From positions 1 to 54,562 of the IMG/VR virus record IMGVR_UViG_2568526722_000002: DNA of 54,562 nucleotides, one strand, 5' to 3'. A program made the translations under genes and the position numbers. This DNA is from a virus. Its lineage: Duplodnaviria; Heunggongvirae; Uroviricota; Caudoviricetes. Positions 945-38,508 of this stretch are shown here, piece by piece. The notes under the pieces are model-generated. The model had not been told where the DNA came from. It made no database searches and saw only the letters and a program-made list of their open reading frames with translations. How positions within the stretch are numbered: position 1 is the stretch's first letter; the number at the start of each line of letters is the position of its first letter.

Positions 945-3011
945 TTATTCCTCTGGGTAAGCTGAGCTAATCAAGGTATCTTCCTGCATACGATTAATAT
1001 GTGATGTTGTCCTTTCATCAATAACTTTCCCATCAAGTACCGTCTGAGTTGTGATATTGATTGTCTGAGGCTGAATATTTACTGACGGCTTGATAAGCTT
1101 TAAATCTTGTGTGAATGTTTCCACTCGACCTTTCAGATTATTTAATGCTTCAGGTGAAAACTGTGGAACATCTTTTGATTTGCCCTGAACCATAGCCCAT
1201 AAAACAGTGGCTAAAGAGTTCATGTCACCAGTTAATGCTTGGTCTGTGGGTTCCACCTTTGACCTTACAACTTTATCAATTGGATTATCTGACTTACTCA
1301 TCTGACGTTCATAGAACGGTTTGACAATGGCATTAATCACATCAGTTGCCATACCGATAATCACTACTTTGGTAATTGCATCAGCTACAGATAATTTTCC
1401 TTTACCACCTTCAACACTACCGGAACGTGAATTAATTCTTCCTGCTGCTGTATTTGCTACATTTCCAAGCGTGGAAATAGCCCTAATTAAGTTCCAGATA
1501 CCACCTACAGCACCAATACCAGACCTTACAGCGACAATACCAGCAAGTCCCTTTAATGCACTTAACAGGCCATTTGCGATACCATCAGCTACAGCTTTTT
1601 GAGTGTCATTTAATTCTCTGTAAGCAAGGGTCACTCTGTCAAAGAATCCCTGCACTCGGTAGCTAATCGTGGTTAAATCATCAATACCGTTTGACATGCT
1701 TTTCATCAAGTCGCCAAAATGTTCACCAAGATTTTTAGCTTGACCACCCAGTGAATTAAGTAAATTAGTCAGTGACCTTGTAAAGTCTGTTAAACCTTCC
1801 TGTGAACCATCGAACATTAAGGCCAGATTATTATTCCATGAATTACTTAAGCGGCCTAACTGCGTCTGAGTAGAGTTAATAATCTTTTCCCATCCACCAG
1901 CTTTATCAATCATCCTTCCCATTTCAGCGGATACTTTAGGGAGAACATCTTTAGAAAGAACCTTACCGTCTTTCATGGCCTTGTCTAATTCTTCTGTAGT
2001 CATCCCAAGGCTTCTGGCAAATAACTGGAAAGCACCTGCCATTCTGTCACCTAATTGACCACGTAGCTCTTCAGCCTGAATCTTCCCTTTAGAAGCCATC
2101 TGCTCGAAAGCTTTCAGAATCCCGTTAATTTCATCAGTACTTAAACCCATTAATCTGGATGTGCCAATCACATTAGAAAATAGGGATTCTTTCTGGTCTG
2201 TATTCATATCACCAGCACCAGCGGAAAACTTAGCAAAACTGCTTAATGTTTCAATCTGGTCTACACCTGTATTATTAGCAAGATTCTTAACGAAGTCTGT
2301 AGCTCGTTTAGCGCCTTCATCGCCTAATACAAATTGTGCCGCTCGTTGTGATGCTTCTTTTTTCAGACCAACCTCCATAATCTTCCTATAAGCTTCTAAG
2401 GCTGTCTGAAAACTATAAATGGCTGTACCTGCTTTGATTGCACTTGTAGCTAATACATCTAAACCATTTGAAGCATTTTCACTGTGATTGTTTTTGCTGG
2501 TGGTCTTATTAAACTTAGAAAGTGTTTCACGTAGATTTTGATTTAACTTTGCTAACTCACGATTAAAAGCTTCGTTCCCAAGTGTCTTGGATTTACCGCT
2601 TAAGCTGTAATACTGGCTTCTAAAATACTTCTCAAGTAGAGGATTAAAGTCACGAAGCTTGCTCATATTCACGCTATGCGCTGCTGTGATTGCTCTGTTT
2701 CCGCTAATTCGTGGCTGTCTTGGCTGTCTAAGTGGCTTTAAAGTATCCTCAATTTCAGTTTTAATCTTAAACGCTTTAGTGTTTTTAAGACGCTGCTCAA
2801 TCTTGGAAACAGTCTTATCGACATTTCTTTCCATGACCTTGAGAGAATCATTTAAAGGCGTAGGGTTAACTCTGAATGCCTTATTTAGTCGTTTCTCAAT
2901 TCTTGATGCGATTTGCATCGTTTGTTTCTCGGCTTTTTCCAAGCCTTTTAAAACTTTCTGAGAGTTAAAACTTAACTCAATCAGAAAATCATCAACTTTA
3001 AACTGTGCCAT
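945..3011 (-). CDS. tail tape-measure-like protein
   Basis: 688-aa, largely helical ORF. Its core segment ...ELRGQLGDRMAGAFQLFARSLGMTTEELDKAMKDGKV... is typical of tape-measure proteins. The C-terminal third is Gly/Ala-rich and hydrophobic. Confidence 0.75.
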   Translation of the reverse strand: MAQFKVDDFLIELSFNSQKVLKGLEKAEKQTMQIASRIEKRLNKAFRVNPTPLNDSLKVMERNVDKTVSKIEQRLKNTKAFKIKTEIEDTLKPLRQPRQPRISGNRAITAAHSVNMSKLRDFNPLLEKYFRSQYYSLSGKSKTLGNEAFNRELAKLNQNLRETLSKFNKTTSKNNHSENASNGLDVLATSAIKAGTAIYSFQTALEAYRKIMEVGLKKEASQRAAQFVLGDEGAKRATDFVKNLANNTGVDQIETLSSFAKFSAGAGDMNTDQKESLFSNVIGTSRLMGLSTDEINGILKAFEQMASKGKIQAEELRGQLGDRMAGAFQLFARSLGMTTEELDKAMKDGKVLSKDVLPKVSAEMGRMIDKAGGWEKIINSTQTQLGRLSNSWNNNLALMFDGSQEGLTDFTRSLTNLLNSLGGQAKNLGEHFGDLMKSMSNGIDDLTTISYRVQGFFDRVTLAYRELNDTQKAVADGIANGLLSALKGLAGIVAVRSGIGAVGGIWNLIRAISTLGNVANTAAGRINSRSGSVEGGKGKLSVADAITKVVIIGMATDVINAIVKPFYERQMSKSDNPIDKVVRSKVEPTDQALTGDMNSLATVLWAMVQGKSKDVPQFSPEALNNLKGRVETFTQDLKLIKPSVNIQPQTINITTQTVLDGKVIDERTTSHINRMQEDTLISSAYPEE

Positions 3012-4073: not shown

Positions 4074-4521
4074 TAATACCTTTCCTCTTCTAAGATAATT
4101 TATGTTTCAGTTTTTAAAAAGCACACCTGACAGCCTGCGAACTTAGAAGAGACTTAAAAGGCGTTTGCCAAGTATGCTTTTTAAAAGCTGAAAAAAGCCC
4201 TAAACATAGGTGATTCGGATATTCATGGAATCATCCTCATCTGTGAAGGGCTTTGGAGGTTTGCTTATAACGTTAACGAAGTTTCAGGAAAAACTTTCTT
4301 TAAAAGCTCTGTTTAAAACTCTTAAAGAAAACGCCCTAACTCATGATTAGGGCAAAGCTGTAAGGGTTCAATAATGAATGATTAAGCACTTTTTGAGATG
4401 ACCTCTCAGACTAAACTGAAAGGCCATGACGAAAAGCATTGCACCTTTCCAACTCAGAATATCCATCCATCGGATTATTGAAAATATGATTTTAGGAAAA
4501 ATTGCTCTTCCTATATATACA

Positions 4522-4550
4522 ATTATGTCATGCTTAAGATTATTTGTCAA
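4522..4550 (-). promoter_or_regulatory. sigma70-type promoter (TTGACA-17-CATAAT)
   Basis: Minus-strand read: TTGACA aataatcttaagcatga CATAAT. It lies ~450 nt upstream of the next start codon at 4073. Confidence 0.55.
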
Positions 4551-4574
4551 CAGCTTTTTAACAGATTGGTAACA

Positions 4575-4652
4575 TCAATTTTTATTTACCGCGTTGCCCA
4601 CCCAGCAACCAACAAATAAACCTAAAGCTGTCCAAGCAATTATTAAGCCCAT
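4575..4652 (-). CDS. 25-aa hydrophobic micro-protein, translationally coupled (TAATG) to the upstream gene
   Basis: MGLIIAWTALGLFVGCWVGNAVNKN. Its ATG overlaps the TAA of ORF 4652-4975. It is below the ORF-track length cut-off. Confidence 0.35.
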   Translation of the reverse strand: MGLIIAWTALGLFVGCWVGNAVNKN

Positions 4653-4975
4653 TAATGCACCACCTTCGAATCCGTAACCAAAACATTGTCAGCGTACAAA
4701 ATTACTATAGCCGCCTTGAGATATTTTTCAGGGCTAACGCTGTATCGGTTAGTTTCCTCAATAATAAGGCGCTTCATGTTTGAGTCGGTAACGGGAAACA
4801 TAAAACGTGGGTCACCAGTTTCAATTTCCTGAATAAAATCTTCAATTGTTTCTGAGTTATCAGCCATTAGCTTTAACAGCCTGTCAAAGTCAATGCTAAT
4901 ACCTGCATCAGTGAAGCTTTGCACCATCATAGCAGTGTCGGTATCAATAAAAATTTGTAATGGGTAACTGTTCAT
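4652..4975 (-). CDS. hypothetical protein
   Basis: 107-aa ORF with AAGGAG SD (ggtgaaaaaggagattttaagaaATG). Confidence 0.6.
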   Translation of the reverse strand: MNSYPLQIFIDTDTAMMVQSFTDAGISIDFDRLLKLMADNSETIEDFIQEIETGDPRFMFPVTDSNMKRLIIEETNRYSVSPEKYLKAAIVILYADNVLVTDSKVVH

Positions 4976-4997
4976 TTCTTAAAATCTCCTTTTTCAC

Positions 4998-5119
4998 CAG
5001 ACCTCCTCAATCGCTCTGTAACGAGCTAAACAGTCTTTTTCAGGGGTAGCCTGTACAGTGGTATTACCCACCCTAAAATAGGGTAGTTTTTTGCGTTAGA
5101 ATGCGATTGAGAGCGTCTG
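4998..5119. repeat. structured repeat element, copy A
   Basis: 5' arm CAGACCTCCTCAATCGC (4998-5014) pairs with 3' arm GCGATTGAGAGCGTCTG (5103-5119). Conserved inner flanks surround a variable hairpin-rich core. A second copy lies at 6653-6751. Confidence 0.7.
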
Positions 5120-5132
5120 AGAAGCTGTTTTT

Positions 5133-5420
5133 CTAATTTCTCTTAAAGTCTCGGACTTGCATAAGATTTTTTGGTCTGGTATCGGCTCTGTTACCATTTC
5201 GATGGATAATTTGCTTATTGGATTGATAGCCATGATAAAGGAACCAGACAACATATTTCACGTAGAAAGTGTATCGGCCTATATTAAATGTTTTGTTGCC
5301 GTAGTCGTCGGTATTTATCGTGACCGACTCTCCATCAGACCAGCACAGGGAATCACTGGATTCATCATAGATAAGGTGTTCTGTAAAATATCGTCTAACA
5401 TCTTCATGCCAAGGTTTCAT
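5133..5420 (-). CDS. HNH_3-like (homing-endonuclease-like) small protein, degenerate motif
   Basis: ...YVVWFLYHGYQSNKQIIHRNGNRADTRPKNL... parallels [29 protein letters not shown] of the HNH gene at 47704-48207. Confidence 0.5.
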   Translation of the reverse strand: MKPWHEDVRRYFTEHLIYDESSDSLCWSDGESVTINTDDYGNKTFNIGRYTFYVKYVVWFLYHGYQSNKQIIHRNGNRADTRPKNLMQVRDFKRN

Positions 5421-5632
5421 AAAACCTCCTCACCCCAATAACCTAATTCAATCTTGTGACGCTCAAACCATTCCGGTTTAACTGCTGTTTTCAGTGCTTC
5501 ATTTGGGCCAATGGCTTTAATGAAAATATCTTTTGAGTTATGGATGTCACCGAATCCGTTTCCTTCAATCAGGAGGTCGGAGATGTAGCGAATCATTTTA
5601 TCTGTGTGGTATTCAAAGGTAACGCATAGCAT
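5417..5632 (-). CDS. hypothetical protein
   Basis: 71-aa ORF whose start and stop overlap its neighbours (ATGA-type coupling). Confidence 0.5.
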   Translation of the reverse strand: MLCVTFEYHTDKMIRYISDLLIEGNGFGDIHNSKDIFIKAIGPNEALKTAVKPEWFERHKIELGYWGEEVL

Positions 5633-5913
5633 TAAACCTCCATCGCTAATTTGTGAATTTTGATACTCATTAGACGGGAAATATCAATTTTAAAGTTGTT
5701 AAGTCCCTTCAAAGTATCTAAAGCGTCCTGAGTAATTCGGATGTGTTTACGACCTTTAGAGACTGGATATTTCAGTAAATCCGACTCAGTGACCTCTTTA
5801 GCAATCGCAAGTTGCATAATAGTTTGATGAGGCAGGCTAGTTGTCTGTTTAATTCGGGTAAGCTCGTTAAAAGCTTCCTCTGAAATACGGGTTAATGTGT
5901 GTCTGCTTTTCAT
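5632..5913 (-). CDS. putative DNA-binding protein (two RHH-like half repeats)
   Basis: Start chosen at MKSRH, preceded by a GGAGG SD. Two similar segments are present: TRISEEAFNEL and IRITQDALDTL. Confidence 0.45.
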   Translation of the reverse strand: MKSRHTLTRISEEAFNELTRIKQTTSLPHQTIMQLAIAKEVTESDLLKYPVSKGRKHIRITQDALDTLKGLNNFKIDISRLMSIKIHKLAMEV

Positions 5914-5914
5914 T

Positions 5915-6466
5915 TTAAAATTCCTCCAAAATATACGGGTCAAACTCAAAGTCTGGTTCACTGGTCGTAAGGCTAATATTGCCCACTTCCACATGATGAT
6001 TGATTGTCTCGATAACTTTATTGCAAATGGTGGCTAAGTTAGCGCAATATTTATCGCTTGGTAGCTCATGGCTTAATCGGGTCGCTTGACGCTGAAGACA
6101 ATTTGTTATTGTGCTTGAGCTAATTTTGTCAATATTTCGTAATAGATAGAAAACTTTCCGGTGATAATTATCCCTTCCAAGACTGCGACAAGTACCGATA
6201 ATTATATCTTCAATTTTTGATGGTAATTGCTCGTAAGAATCAAAGCTCATCAGGAAAGTCTTTAAAGTGTTCTCTTTTTCTTTGCGTGTTGGCATGTGTC
6301 TTACCCGTGGCGTAATGCTACGAATGACCGCTTCAATGTTTCTACGTTCGGATTTGGTAAAGGCTGGGACTTCGTAGCTGGTGGGGGTGTCTGTGTAGCT
6401 GTAACCGTTGTGTCTGTTGCGTCTCTTGGATTCTTCAAGAAACTTTTGAAATTCTCTGTCGTTCAT
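5915..6466 (-). CDS. hypothetical early protein
   Basis: 183-aa ORF, the first gene downstream of the strong minus-strand promoter at 6518-6546. Confidence 0.6.
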   Translation of the reverse strand: MNDREFQKFLEESKRRNRHNGYSYTDTPTSYEVPAFTKSERRNIEAVIRSITPRVRHMPTRKEKENTLKTFLMSFDSYEQLPSKIEDIIIGTCRSLGRDNYHRKVFYLLRNIDKISSSTITNCLQRQATRLSHELPSDKYCANLATICNKVIETINHHVEVGNISLTTSEPDFEFDPYILEEF

Positions 6467-6517
6467 TCATATTCTGACCCTCATAAGATGTTATTATTCT
6501 GTTAACTCATATATACA

Positions 6518-6546
6518 ATACTAGCAGTTTCAAAGACTAATGTCAA
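6518..6546 (-). promoter_or_regulatory. sigma70 promoter TTGACA-17-TAGTAT driving the 6466->4652 operon
   Basis: Minus-strand read: TTGACA ttagtctttgaaactgc TAGTAT. Confidence 0.65.
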
Positions 6547-6553
6547 GTATTTT

Positions 6554-6583
6554 TTAACATTTTATTAACATTTGTGGTATAAT
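6554..6583 (+). promoter_or_regulatory. divergent sigma70 promoter TTAACA-18-TATAAT with TGn extended -10
   Basis: ttaaca ttttattaacatttgtgg tataat. It sits back-to-back with the minus-strand promoter. Confidence 0.6.
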
Positions 6584-6652
6584 GGTCCTATGGGGAGAGT
6601 AAAATATAAAGGCGTGGCCATGTATTTGGTCACATGGTTATTGCATTGCACA

Positions 6653-6751
6653 CAGACCTCTTCAATCGCCCTGTAACGAGTTAAACGACCTCTTCAGGTC
6701 AACTCATAAGGTCAGGTACTTTTTGTGTCAGAATGCGATTGAGAGCGTCTT
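6653..6751. repeat. structured repeat element, copy B
   Basis: CAGACCTCTTCAATCGC ... GCGATTGAGAGCGTCTT, with the same conserved flanks as copy A and a different core hairpin (gacctcttcaggtc). Confidence 0.7.
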
Positions 6752-6764
6752 ACAAGGAAATTTA

Positions 6765-6953
6765 ATGGTAAATCTCCCTCCTGAGCTGGGGTCACCTGAT
6801 GTATGGGCTGGTGGAGGTATTGGACTTATTGCAGGTCTGCTGCTTCGCTATTTCATCGTCAGAGTGTTTATCGTGTTCAGATTGTTTGGTCGTGAATGGT
6901 CGTTTGACCTCAAGGACAGAGGCCGTGAAGACAATCACACAGAACCCCGCTAA
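6765..6953 (+). CDS. possible 62-aa single-pass membrane protein
   Basis: MVNLPPELGSPDVWAGGGIGLIAGLLLRYFIVRVFIVF..., with an AAGGA SD 8 nt upstream. It competes with overlapping ORFs on both strands. Confidence 0.3.
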   Translation: MVNLPPELGSPDVWAGGGIGLIAGLLLRYFIVRVFIVFRLFGREWSFDLKDRGREDNHTEPR

Positions 6954-7066
6954 ACTCCCTCCAAAACCCCCTGTACGAGATGGTATAGGGGTATCTTTAG
7001 CATTTTGTGCTATCCATGAAAAAATAACTTGACAGAACCGGAAAGCTGTATCTATCAAGTATTCAC

Positions 7067-7251
7067 CCTTCTAACAGTAATTTCTAAAAGTTCTTATTTT
7101 TCAATAAGTTGTAATTAGCCATATATAGAGAACTGACAAGTCTCTTCACAGACAACTCTGCAACCTTAACAGTAACTTCTAAAAATGCTTATTTTTCAAC
7201 GAGTTGTAATCACCCAATATATAAGGCTGTCCAGCACCTTCACAGAGAAAC
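7067..7251. repeat. two ~90-bp tandem direct repeats (period ~96 bp)
   Basis: Each unit reads ccttNtaacagtaaYttctaaaa..ttatttttcaaYRagttgtaat..atatataRRg..cttcacaga. A condensed third copy lies at ~9313-9345. Confidence 0.7.
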
Positions 7252-7957
7252 TTCAGAGGTCTTCTTAATCAATCCACTAAGCGGGAGAGAGCGATAACCC
7301 CAGAGAGGGAAGCTCCCTTCTTAATCGGCCTCCTAACCAGTCTTTACAAACCTTGTTCAAGGTAATCACAATAGATTTTTCTTCCCTCGTTCTTCGTGTT
7401 CCTCGGTTTGCCTATTGAGACTTGAAAGACCTCTGTAACTTCCCTCTTAGACAGGGAAGAATAATATTGGTGACACAAGCGAAGCGCCCCTCTAAAAAGA
7501 TTTTTTAGCTATTTTGTTTAAAAACACATCAAACGATACATTTTATTGATTTAGGTCAAAGACAAAAGCATTGACAAAATGGTAAGATTGTTCACATGAC
7601 CTTACTTAACAGACTTTTAAGAGGCTTTGAAACGACCTACTTAACAAGGTCACTACATCTGGTCTTATCGTTCCCTGTCTTCTTGGTAGTTCTGTTAAGT
7701 ATCTTTTCAGGTATCTCTTACAGTCACTGTTAAGATGATACTCTCCCTTCGGGTTATATCGTATCTCTTCCCCCGTTAAACACTCCTTCCTAACAACTTC
7801 ATAGTTATCTGTCAAGTACCTTTGAAGATTCTATCAAGACCTCTAAATCTGACCTGATATAGATGCTGTGAAGGCATGTTCTCTAGGTCTGTGTAGCTTA
7901 CTTAGCGGGAAAAGAGGATATGGTGACCATAGGGGAACCCCTCCTGTTAAAAGTTTC

Positions 7958-7985
7958 TTGATGTTATCATCACAATATGTATAAT
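7958..7985 (+). promoter_or_regulatory. sigma70 promoter TTGATG-16-TATAAT
   Basis: ttgatg ttatcatcacaatatg tataat. Confidence 0.6.
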
Positions 7986-7991
7986 CACCAA

Positions 7992-8152
7992 CTGTACAGA
8001 CACCTTAACGGTTTCTCTACACCTCACTATGGCTAGGTAGGGTATGGTTTAGCTTGGTACGGCTAGGTTAGGTCTGGTTTGGTTAGGTATGGGTGGATTG
8101 TCGTAGCCACGTTAAAAATCGACTTATAGGGACTCTTTCGGGAGTCCTTTTT
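7992..8152 (+). ncRNA. candidate ~160-nt small RNA with GG-dinucleotide repeat body
   Basis: Bounded by the promoter at 7958-7985 and an intrinsic terminator at 8130-8152. No ORF longer than 5 codons. 8031-8096 carries 13 GG/GGG tracts in two ~30-nt units (ggctaggt...). Confidence 0.45.
8130..8152 (+). terminator. intrinsic terminator
   Basis: GGACTC tttcgg GAGTCC followed by TTTTT. Confidence 0.7.
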
Positions 8153-8260
8153 AGTTTGTATAAAATCTGTACAGTAACTTTTCAGAGTCTGAAAATTTTT
8201 ATAAAAAATGACTAGCCCTCTTTGAATCTCATCTTCCCCGAATCTTCGAAAATATCTGTC

Positions 8261-8273
8261 TAGTTGATTCGGT
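8261..8273. repeat. left 13-bp inverted repeat flanking the recombinase cassette
   Basis: TAGTTGATTCGGT is the exact reverse complement of 9119-9131 (ACCGAATCAACTA). Confidence 0.8.
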
Positions 8274-8381
8274 AGAATCTACCTCATGATGTATACCTGC
8301 TAAGTACCCGTCACACCAGCTATGTGACCCCCTTTGCAAAAAAGCCAAATATCAGCTACATCCATGTAACTATTCGGTAAC

Positions 8382-8930
8382 TTATTTAGCAAGTCTGTAA
8401 TAAGTTGCTTTAGAGATTCCTAATTCTTCCTGAATCTGCAACCTCGTTTTACCTTGTGAAATAAGCGTCTGTACAGCCTCTGAAGAAGCTTTTACAGGCC
8501 TCCCCATATGTACCCCTTCAGCTTTAGCACGTTCAATACCAGCCTTTCTACGTTCACTGATAAGGTCTTTTTCAAGGTCAGCTAAACCAGCCATCATAGT
8601 AAGCATTGCTCTACCGATTGGTGTTAATAAGTCGAAACCTTCACGCAAAGAAACAACTCTCACACCTTTAGTCTGTAGTGCCTCCACGTTAGAGAGCACA
8701 TCAACGGTATTACGCCCTAAACGGTCAATAGCTACCACAACTAACGTATCGTCACACCTTACATAGTTCATCATGTCTCTAAAACCATCTCTGCTGGTGG
8801 CCTTTGTAGCTCCTGAGACAGCCTCATCAATAAACCATTTATCGACCTTGTGAACCTTCTCTATCTGTAGTTTCTGGTTGTCTACAGTCTGGTCTTGTGT
8901 TGATACCCTGCAATAACCAATCACCGCCAT
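8382..8930 (-). CDS. small serine recombinase (resolvase/invertase family)
   Basis: MAVIGYCRVSTQDQ... (catalytic Ser motif), ...VVVAIDRLGRN..., and a C-terminal HTH (LGISKATYYRLAK). 182 aa, with AAGGGGGA SD. Confidence 0.9.
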   Translation of the reverse strand: MAVIGYCRVSTQDQTVDNQKLQIEKVHKVDKWFIDEAVSGATKATSRDGFRDMMNYVRCDDTLVVVAIDRLGRNTVDVLSNVEALQTKGVRVVSLREGFDLLTPIGRAMLTMMAGLADLEKDLISERRKAGIERAKAEGVHMGRPVKASSEAVQTLISQGKTRLQIQEELGISKATYYRLAK

Positions 8931-9069: not shown

Positions 9070-9118
9070 GTTATGAAGGAGCTATGAGGTTGATTAGGGG
9101 TTGGTACAAGCCCAACTA

Positions 9119-9131
9119 ACCGAATCAACTA
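9119..9131. repeat. right 13-bp inverted repeat flanking the recombinase cassette
   Basis: ACCGAATCAACTA. Related ACCGAATAG copies lie at 8368-8378 (-) and 9479-9491 (+). Confidence 0.8.
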
Positions 9132-9494
9132 TGAAGATTTTAGGAGGGTAACTATAACCATCACTTCCTAACTTTCACATAGCTGATTGTTATCTCTTGC
9201 AACTGTAACGTATGGTGACCAAACATCTATATAGCGTTATATGCTCCTGTATATAGCACTTTTCTAGGAGTCGAGAGAGGGACGACTAACACGATACAGT
9301 TTACCCTGAAAAGAGACTTCACAGATTCTTTATATATTTCAATAAGTTATGATAAAAAGGGACTATACCGATACTGCATAGAATCTGTGTAGAATTGCAT
9401 AGATAGCGCATAAATACACCGTTAAATTGCATAGTCATTCACCTGTTTATGTCCTGTTATTAACAGGTTTCTTAGAAAACCGAATAGACTTCAT

Positions 9495-38414: not shown

Positions 38415-38442
38415 ATAAAAAAGCCCCGCACGATGGCGAGGC
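38415..38442 (-). terminator. intrinsic terminator (tR'-like, proximal to Q)
   Basis: Minus-strand read: GCCTCGC catcgt GCGGGGC followed by TTTTTTATTTGC (one G-U pair). Confidence 0.7.
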
Positions 38443-38508
38443 TCTTAATTCTTTGTCGACCTACGAAGCTATGGCGACGATATCAGATTTACATGAAATA
38501 TATGCGTT

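Follow-up and report, generated by a model that had tools for sequence, protein, structure and literature searches.

A duplicated palindromic module in an SpLE2-like island and its likeness to plasmid cer-type sites

What are the two similar, hairpin-prone segments near the beginning of the tailed-phage record IMGVR_UViG_2568526722_000002? The window, that is, the whole stretch of 54,562 nucleotides (nt) analysed here, from whose first letter the module coordinates are counted, starts with a low-GC (about 39%) island of the SpLE2-like serine-recombinase type, extending from position 1 to about 10,000. Both segments, copy A (4998-5119) and copy B (6653-6751), belong to this island. A first-pass annotation, made from the letters alone, had considered a cis-acting RNA, a retron-like RNA and a miniature inverted-repeat transposable element (MITE). 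A and B are paralogues of one discrete palindromic DNA module. Most likely this module is a recombination accessory element functioning at the level of DNA, or a relic of such an element, rather than a new RNA gene.

The sequence and pairwise alignment bear out two copies in the same orientation, and the first description of their common parts was also correct. The copies share a 5' segment of 34 nt, CAGACCTCYTCAATCGCYCTGTAACGAGYTAAAC, and a 3' segment of about 31-37 nt, TTTTTGYGTYAGAATGCGATTGAGAGCGTCT, and the likeness continues for six nucleotides beyond the latter, GTCT[G/T]A[G/C]AAG, up to position 5124 in A and 6756 in B. With three mismatches allowed, each arm has only two sites in the window, where none is expected (100 shuffles), and a repeat search of the window independently picks up the 3' arm (family D9). 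The module termini are the inverted repeats CAGACCTCYTCAATCGC and GCGATTGAGAGCGTCT[G/T]. The arms of A are located at 4998-5031 and 5093-5122, the 5' arm of B, defined by pairwise alignment, at 6653-6686, and the units of its 3' arm at 6725-6754. The cores of A (5032-5087) and B (6687-6719) are unrelated in sequence, and a discrete module with a conserved closing stem and a swapped interior is the right description. The core of B contains the hairpin GACCTCTTCAGGTC and related sequence, partly like the module core of islands found by tRNA-Gly and thrW (see below). The core of A was said to be hairpin-rich; a small hairpin, ccaccctaaaatagggtag, is indeed present, but it belongs to a minority allele, as most homologues read ...AAATAAGATAG or ...AAATAAGGTAG and have lost it.

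The termini do pair, although the closing stem is better drawn as 5 + 3 + 8 = 16 base pairs (bp) with two single-nucleotide bulges than as the 17-nt stem of 5+9 bp around a 3-nt internal loop proposed initially. In A the stem is lengthened inward by a TAACG/CGTTA helix, and in B the outermost C is unpaired (C.T). Copy A folds at -46.3 kcal/mol (z -5.7 on the plus strand and -5.0 on the minus strand, relative to shuffles) and copy B at -33.2 kcal/mol (z -3.8 and -4.3, respectively). The 3' arm is composed of three phased 10-bp units, GCGTTAGAAT|GCGATTGAGA|GCGTCTGAGA in A and GTGTCAGAAT|GCGATTGAGA|GCGTCTTACA in B. The same array recurs, inverted and degenerate, in the 5' arm; by inspection, the reverse complement of the 5' arm of A reads TCGTTACAGA|GCGATTGAGG|AGGTCTG. 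Since the arms are two inverted arrays, the long closing stem is their by-product.

The array is common to plasmid cer-type sites and several phages. The 3' arm is identical in 26-28 of 31 positions to a block in four plasmids of three kinds. The small plasmids that bear it encode a ColE2-type replicase (Replicase, PF03090) and a MobQ relaxase, and the same block occurs in an IncF plasmid. The block lies just upstream of the XerC arm, with an ARG-box-like sequence, TGCATAGTTATGCA, farther upstream and GGTACGTACAA|GAGGAG|TTATGGTAAAT directly downstream; it is therefore situated inside a plasmid cer-type multimer-resolution site (mrs). In cer, a 30-bp XerC/XerD core adjoins some 180 bp of accessory DNA to which ArgR and PepA bind. 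The interval from the ARG box to the XerC/XerD sites contains phased A-T tracts, and Pcer, the promoter of Rcd, is also located inside the site (PMC5357621, PMC2831885, PMC4393325). Sites of the cer-like kind are carried by MOBQ4/ColE2 plasmids (PMC6856555). The cer site of ColE1, compared here, has the same layout, with a strong inverted repeat (z -5.35) at the same position; in the ColE2-type sites, a 46-nt T-rich spacer separates the halves of an 11-bp inverted repeat.

Copy B resembles these sites over a longer region. Local alignment of 6720-6780 with the plasmid mrs scores 51, the maximum in shuffled sequences being 32 (0/500), and the score of the XerD part alone is equalled or exceeded in three of 500 shuffles. 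The units of the 3' arm of B match the XerC-proximal accessory segment of plasmid cer-type sites in 28 of 31 positions. They are followed by the best Xer-core-like site of the 54.5-kb window, GCGTCTTACAA|GGAAATT|TAATGGTAAAT, with 7/11 and 10/11 matches in its arms. The putative remnant of the XerC arm, GCGTCTTACAA (6745-6755, plus strand), retains the inner TACAA and a few outer positions of the best reference arm. The putative 7-bp central region GGAAATT (6756-6762, plus strand) is also the Shine-Dalgarno spacer of the downstream open reading frame (ORF), and the putative XerD arm TAATGGTAAAT (6763-6773, plus strand), to be compared with TTATGGTAAAT of cer, includes the ATG codon at 6765. Essentially all loci with B have retained the XerD-like arm; however, it overlaps the start codon, and this conservation is confounded by coding constraint.

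About 120 related loci were gathered from E. coli genomes, viral contigs, metagenomes and assemblies, and 126 module instances were extracted. All 126 stand in one of two flank contexts, upstream of the ribosome-binding site (RBS) of either a gene of 107 amino acids (aa) for A or a 62-aa ORF for B; the only odd flank proved to be a sequencing-adapter artefact. In E. coli genomes, module matches track the island copies, and an exact 20-mer search of genome contigs yielded only E. albertii and two chance matches in metagenome-assembled genomes. Among the loci, A and B combine independently (A1B+ 21, A2B+ 21, A1B- 13, A3B- 3, in a sample partly biased towards pattern-bearing loci).

Two loci, L006 and L020, lack B precisely from stem base to stem base, ...GCATTGCACACAG|GAAATTTAATGGTAAAT. 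The segment missing from these 'empty' alleles is 6656-6756, give or take an AG; this 2-nt microhomology is all that is seen at the junctions, and no target-site duplication was found there. A second, distinct type of B-less leader occurs in L017-19 and L021-23. The empty allele reads ATTGCACACAG|GAAATT|TAATGGTAAAT, which is a 28-bp dif-like sequence, and the boundary of the B indel coincides with the junction between the XerC arm and the central region. The central regions, 7 bp with B and 6 bp in the empty allele, are both within the range of 6-8 bp. The plasmid cer-type homology extends across the right boundary of the indel, so that occupancy by B appears to be the ancestral condition and the empty sites seem to have arisen by deletion of the palindrome. 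Slippage at the base of a hairpin is a well-known route of deletion.

Copy A is represented by the window type, a core variant, a core-inverted variant, the divergent Citrobacter allele A3 and an unrelated hairpin-rich spacer, A2; its core comes in three alleles plus one metagenome variant with the inverted core. In this last variant the core reads GGGGGATGTAATACCACTGCACAGACCACCCC, as opposed to GGGGTAGCCTGTACAGTGGTATTACCCACCC elsewhere, with the arms unchanged, which amounts to an inversion of the hairpin loop. A3 retains the closing stem in another register, GCTCTGTA/TACAGAGC plus AACAG/CTGTT (z -3.4 and -3.9). Copy A is about 98% conserved even beside very different neighbours, in loci whose flanking genes are 31-100% identical, and it is kept where the adjoining HNH gene is absent.

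We tentatively lean towards reading B as a cer/psi-like Xer site, or what is left of one, and A as an orphan copy of the accessory module: a cer-type DNA element would have been elaborated into a palindrome, with the RNA hairpin as a consequence. B is assigned this role because it keeps the plasmid order of array, TACAA, 7-bp central region and near-perfect XerD arm. The phased repeats and the inverted repeat may shape or bind an accessory nucleoprotein complex on DNA, with an architecture of the PepA type. Such a complex would confine the host XerCD to directly repeated sites, and the action of XerCD would hold the excised circular island monomeric. The strong palindrome could be lost precisely by slippage at the stem base, which would account for the 'empty' alleles, and the module would inevitably form a hairpin in both mRNAs crossing it.

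Several observations weigh against this reading. Firstly, the ARG box expected some 100 bp upstream of the putative core is missing; the best match in 6481-6780 has 4-5 mismatches and lies elsewhere. Compared with the arrangement in the plasmids, the putative XerC arm is truncated by about 12-13 nt. The 5' arm and core are not significantly similar to the plasmid sites (score 14, shuffle mean 15.4), and copy A has no XerD-like arm. Secondly, the B site is located in a 5' untranslated region (UTR), between a strong promoter and a start codon, which is an odd position for recombination to take place, and the XerD-like 11-mer codes for Met-Val-Asn. An Xer-like core this good is expected about 0.16 times per window by chance, and so its significance depends on its position beside the plasmid-like block. 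Thirdly, both A and B contain TTGAGA, but by inspection no acceptable Pcer-type -10 box follows at 15-18 bp, whereas the plasmids and ColE1 have TACAA(T/G/C) at promoter spacing when compared with Pcer/Rcd. Finally, T5-like, T1-like and jumbo phages, KVP40 and other islands all have the array but no Xer core beside it; thus the array has an existence independent of Xer.

Set beside the cer-type sites (ColE1 cer and the ColE2-type/MOBQ4 sites), the module has the same array between the accessory inverted repeat and the XerC arm, the same order of array, TACAA, 6-8-bp spacer and TTATGGTAAAT-like arm, a similar inverted repeat around a T-rich or hairpin-rich spacer just upstream, and a phasing of about 10 bp. 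Apart from the ARG box, the Pcer -10 and the short XerC arm, it differs in that its inverted repeat is far longer (16-21 bp) and in another register, that it resides in the 5' UTR of a chromosomal island, and that its second copy is coreless. The psi site of pSC101 and other Xer sites with variant accessory sequences are similar in layout, having central regions of 6-7 bp and accessory sequences that do not use ArgR. The attP(+) sites of CTX-phi-type integrative mobile elements exploiting Xer and the attC sites of integrons share with the module a hairpin unit with conserved arms, a variable interior and a junction at the XerC cleavage position. However, XerC/XerD arms are not rebuilt by the module stem, both an R''/R' GTTRRRY core and IntI are lacking, the module is only about 100 nt long with no cargo, and the evidence favours deletion over integration. 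An attC site was rejected as a candidate: by inspection, the R''/R' core sites (RYYYAAC ... GTTRRRY) fit only partly (CTGTAAC ... GTTAGAA), and the island recombinases are serine enzymes.

If B does work as an Xer site, SpLE2-like islands would exploit host dimer resolution through a plasmid-type accessory module, and a replicating circular phase of the island would be implied, as expected of a phage satellite. About one in ten E. coli genomes, O157:H7 among them, has an island of this type, and the islands bear Felix O1-like tail genes. The comparison also provides a sequence handle on the poorly defined XerC-proximal part of the cer accessory sequences. If, on the other hand, the module is only a palindromic relic, it would be a clean case of hairpin-prone DNA being duplicated and then precisely lost at the stem base.

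Another possibility, which we regard as unlikely but worth serious attention, is that the module is a cis-acting RNA hairpin, an irregular helix of more than 20 bp that could be processed by RNase III, stabilise the message from its 5' side or control translation. A strong promoter had been noticed upstream of B, and it is real as a consensus match: the promoter-like site P (TTAACA-18-TATAAT, TG-extended, 11/12; 6554-6583, plus strand) is conserved in all loci and would transcribe through B. A divergent promoter-like site (6518-6546, minus strand), also identified as a consensus match, would serve the minus-strand operon that includes A. Copy A would thus be part of an operon mRNA and B of the leader starting at P, and both end 3-10 nt upstream of the next Shine-Dalgarno box. 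The gene next to A is the 107-aa ORF (4652-4975, minus strand), whose RBS is 8-10 nt from the left end of A; directly downstream of B is the 62-aa single-pass membrane ORF (6765-6953, plus strand), which corresponds to the small membrane-protein gene suspected earlier. Because the arms are nearly palindromic, each of the two mRNAs has the same 'sense' arm ahead of its gene. In addition, folding is strong on both strands, the Citrobacter A3 allele keeps the closing stem despite its different register, and substitutions in the stem of B mostly create G.U pairs on the transcribed strand (26 cells, compared with 6 for A.C), with one double change from U-A to C-G.

However, the excess of G.U stems mainly from one polymorphism, and counted by positions the ratio is 5 to 4. 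The consensus fold of the 36 distinct B sequences pairs 98.7% of cells, as compared with 98.6% in the shuffled control. Only two double-change pairs were found among these sequences, with a covariation score of 0.063 against 0.060 after shuffling (115/500 as high), and overall covariation does not exceed that of shuffles (115-189/500 as high); the variants of A are too uniform for such a test. Rfam contains nothing that matches at the gathering score and nothing relevant even at E<=5 in the region 4300-8400. The position immediately 5' of an RBS holds for both copies. The covariation looked for in a cis-acting RNA was not seen above the shuffled controls, and no known family matches. Moreover, the conserved unit is a single unfolded array in T5-like phages (z -0.3) and a DNA repeat of variable number elsewhere, the arms are conserved as sequence beyond what mere pairing would require, and some islands have no A (those with the A2 allele) or no B. 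The R sites of T7, which are RNase III hairpins, and 5'-UTR stabilisers are similar to the module in being long irregular intergenic helices located immediately 5' of an RBS and repeated within the element; they differ from it in that the module, known here from its sequence, shows no covariation and conserves sequence rather than structure. RNA structure of the module is possible.

The distribution of the array leads to a further explanation. A BLAST search with the 3' arm produces near-identical single-copy matches in unrelated elements, always in unannotated DNA. The phased motif of 30-40 nt, GCGTTAGAATGCGWTTGAGAGCGTYT.AGRGCTAT, is found once per genome in T5-like, T1-like, Asteriusvirus and Seoulvirus phages and in KVP40 (window 5093-5122; L109 2501-2530; L112 1501-1524; L113 1201-1227; L114 1201-1218; L115 and L116 1201-1224). 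In the jumbo phages of Asteriusvirus the identity to the arm is 24/24; Seoulvirus phages are jumbo phages as well. The match in T5-like phages, at about 7.9% of the genome, falls in the terminal repeat, where it comes just behind the pre-early terminator and ahead of the region with a LexA-box-like sequence and a DnaA box described by Davison (10.1101/866236). A T5 nick site was considered at this position and rejected, as the consensus R/GCGCRGG (PMC3517423) is mismatched. With the T5 version as a query, matches are obtained in 1344 of 5426 E. coli genomes, including small plasmids and capsid-encoding islands by tRNA-Gly and thrW. The copy number of the unit GCGTTTTAGA varies between relatives, from two in the capsid-encoding island L120 to four in L119, which is the behaviour of a DNA repeat. 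No copy of the motif was found in a Felix O1-like phage half-genome, and no further homology links the island with the plasmids and other islands that share the motif.

The same two capsid-encoding islands contain a full homologue of the module (L119 5900-6045 and L120 5900-6030), with 22/31 identities in the 5' arm. A strong TTGACA promoter lies about 130 nt downstream of this homologue, and about 2 kb of unannotated DNA precedes it.

It is conceivable, though rather improbable in our view, that the array (about GCGTTAGAAT GCGWTTGAGA GCGTYTNAGA GCTAT) is a new cross-element DNA signal for one host factor, with the island module as its sensor or operator. A PepA- or FIS-type architectural protein or a response regulator may be this factor; these are candidates only. 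The signal may have been recruited independently by plasmid cer-type sites and, as palindrome-forming inverted pairs, by SpLE2-like and capsid-encoding islands. In the most exotic version, a hairpin unit of about 100 nt may move by XerC-type single-strand exchange. The block of about 35 nt is conserved in the first-step-transfer region of T5 and in other virulent lineages, and a signal of this kind could explain non-coding DNA in many mobile elements. The wide spread of the 3'-arm motif among virulent phages is the most interesting loose end.

A plainer variant, to which we give slightly less weight still, is a protein-binding or promoter array with no connection to Xer. It would be recognised by FIS, PepA or a protein of the response-regulator type, and/or form the upstream half of a Pcer-like promoter, and the two inverted arrays would be an operator for divergent transcription units. 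The once-per-genome occurrence in varied phages, KVP40 and capsid islands, the number of E. coli genomes with a match, and the variable unit copy number all agree with this. So does promoter-like spacing: by inspection, a distance of 17 bp separates TTGAGA from TAGAGT or TAGAAT in T5-like phages, and in the plasmids from TACAA(G/C/A), which overlaps the XerC arm. The plasmid spacing can be read as the position of Pcer, in which case the block would carry the -35 box. However, neither copy in the window has a usable -10 box at 15-18 bp, the fits to the consensus sequences of ArcA, CpxR, PhoP, OmpR, FIS, IHF and LexA are unconvincing (by eye only), and no core-genome copy was seen among the E. 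coli matches. An Lrp site at the module was rejected on the same visual ground.

About equally improbable is a selfish or passively spread palindrome that has no function for the island and is copied by hairpin template switching, by Xer-type single-strand integration or by co-conversion with the HNH gene. The presence or absence of B is polymorphic with boundaries exactly at the stem base, and the homology between A and B stops at the same boundaries. Copy A is far better conserved than the flanking proteins, whose identity drops as low as 31-64%, and conservation is highest around the HNH gene. The related full module in unrelated capsid-encoding islands and the allele with the inverted core could also be understood in this way. 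On the other side, the 126 instances, drawn from several hundred genomes and metagenomes, occupy two fixed sites only, there is neither a target-site duplication nor a transposase, and A persists in islands devoid of the HNH gene. The MITE suggested in the first-pass annotation fares similarly. Terminal inverted repeats and empty B sites in related islands do exist, but nothing beyond AG is duplicated, and the plasmid-like homology across the junction makes deletion likelier than insertion. ERIC/IRU and REP/BIME elements resemble the module, as MITEs do, in being imperfect palindromes of about 100-127 bp in intergenic transcribed DNA with presence/absence polymorphism; the module differs from all of them in its two fixed sites and the lack of chromosomal dispersal, target-site duplication and sequence similarity.

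Very improbable is a trans-acting antisense pair, in which the minus-strand RNA of A, complementary over 34 + 31 nt to the leader of B, would control the membrane protein in the manner of type I toxin-antitoxin systems: the arms are complementary in trans and a small hydrophobic ORF does stand behind a long leader, but A and B occur independently across islands and both arms are locked in very stable intramolecular stems. A retron-like RNA can be dismissed, as no island ORF has a reverse transcriptase domain and no Rfam family matches.

Some other candidates were tried and rejected. Homology of the entire left half of B to the plasmid ARG box and inverted repeat, suggested by a MAFFT alignment, is not significant relative to shuffles. 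The sequence GCUCUGUAACGA agrees with the rrn boxA in 10 of 12 positions, but by inspection A is transcribed in the wrong sense for nut/boxA and the phage orientation is inconsistent. Sigma-70, sigma-E and sigma-54 readings of TAGAAT and GTCTGA have no consistent partner hexamer. The hairpin of a possible intrinsic terminator within A, ACCCTAAAATAGGGT with a T run, is missing from the commonest alleles, and a leaderless upstream ORF starting at 6590 is not conserved in other loci. CRISPR-repeat mimicry was also considered, as GTTTTAGAGCTAT resembles the SpCas9 repeat and CUUAGAAU the I-F handle, but both resemblances were judged coincidental. Literature searches by protein accession and sequence string returned nothing on the module.

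The island is homologous to E. coli elements of 11-13 kb inserted between tonB and yciI or in yecE (DUF72). The yecE insertion of O157:H7 is presumably SpLE2, judging by its size and site. A 3-kb region of the island is present in 525 of 5426 complete E. coli genomes (about 10%), and the family is found in Escherichia, Shigella, Citrobacter and Salmonella. The gene order is: a large serine recombinase, Dit-like and tape-measure genes, unknown proteins, HNH_3 in some variants, the divergent promoters, the 62-aa membrane ORF, a long non-coding stretch and a Hin-type invertase. The islands are strongly mosaic, with identities of 42-99% for the tape-measure protein, 31-100% for the 107-aa protein and 59-100% for a 183-aa protein; searches with the latter, as a single query or an alignment, found no relatives in viral contigs. 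Resemblance to phages is limited to the Dit-like and tape-measure genes (Felix O1-like Ounavirinae). The Dit-like protein (gene at 1-771) is 66-70% and the tape-measure protein (gene at 945-3011) about 32% identical to those of virulent Felix O1-like phages. The island has no capsid or terminase gene. Given its large serine recombinase and its use of two integration sites, tonB-yciI and yecE, it looks like an undescribed satellite-like or tail-interfering element.

As first described, A lies between two minus-strand genes, those of the 107-aa protein and of an HNH_3 endonuclease (5133-5420), the latter present in only some of the A-carrying islands. To the right of A there is a conserved non-coding extension, AGAAGCTGTTTTTCTAATTTCTCTTAAAGTCTCGGACT (5120-5157), which also persists in loci where another gene stops short of it. 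In the window, HNH_3 overlaps this block with its last nine codons; in islands with no HNH_3, the block is conserved as non-coding DNA. This arrangement is consistent with insertion of the HNH_3 gene at a mosaic boundary.

The Hin-type invertase gene (8382-8930) is flanked by inverted half-sites of the ACCGAATCAAC type (8251-8273 and 9119-9141). In other islands, the block TAGGGGTTGGTACAAGCCCAACTAACCGAATCAACTATG (window positions 9095-9140) or a 24-bp hix-like palindrome, GTTTATTCGATAAACCGAATCAAC, is located in the leader just downstream of P, which suggests an invertible switch that would alter what P transcribes. In the stretch of about 1.4 kb between the 62-aa ORF and the invertase gene (6954-8381), no ORF exceeds about 45 aa, and this region is also unannotated in RefSeq relatives. 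Within it are two 50-nt direct repeats (7072-7121 and 7167-7216), part of which recurs once more at 9333-9353.

The 580-nt gap between the 107-aa gene and a 234-aa gene contains a near-consensus minus-strand promoter, TTGACA-17-CATAAT with a TG (4550-4522), and a terminator-like hairpin on the same strand (4354-4332), which together would yield a small RNA of about 190 nt. A 28-nt inverted repeat (4105-4193) is near this putative small-RNA gap (4325-4550). In the neighbouring higher-GC prophage, the Hfq-binding small RNA isrJ (RF01393) has a full-length match of 68.7 bits on the minus strand (38420-38493).

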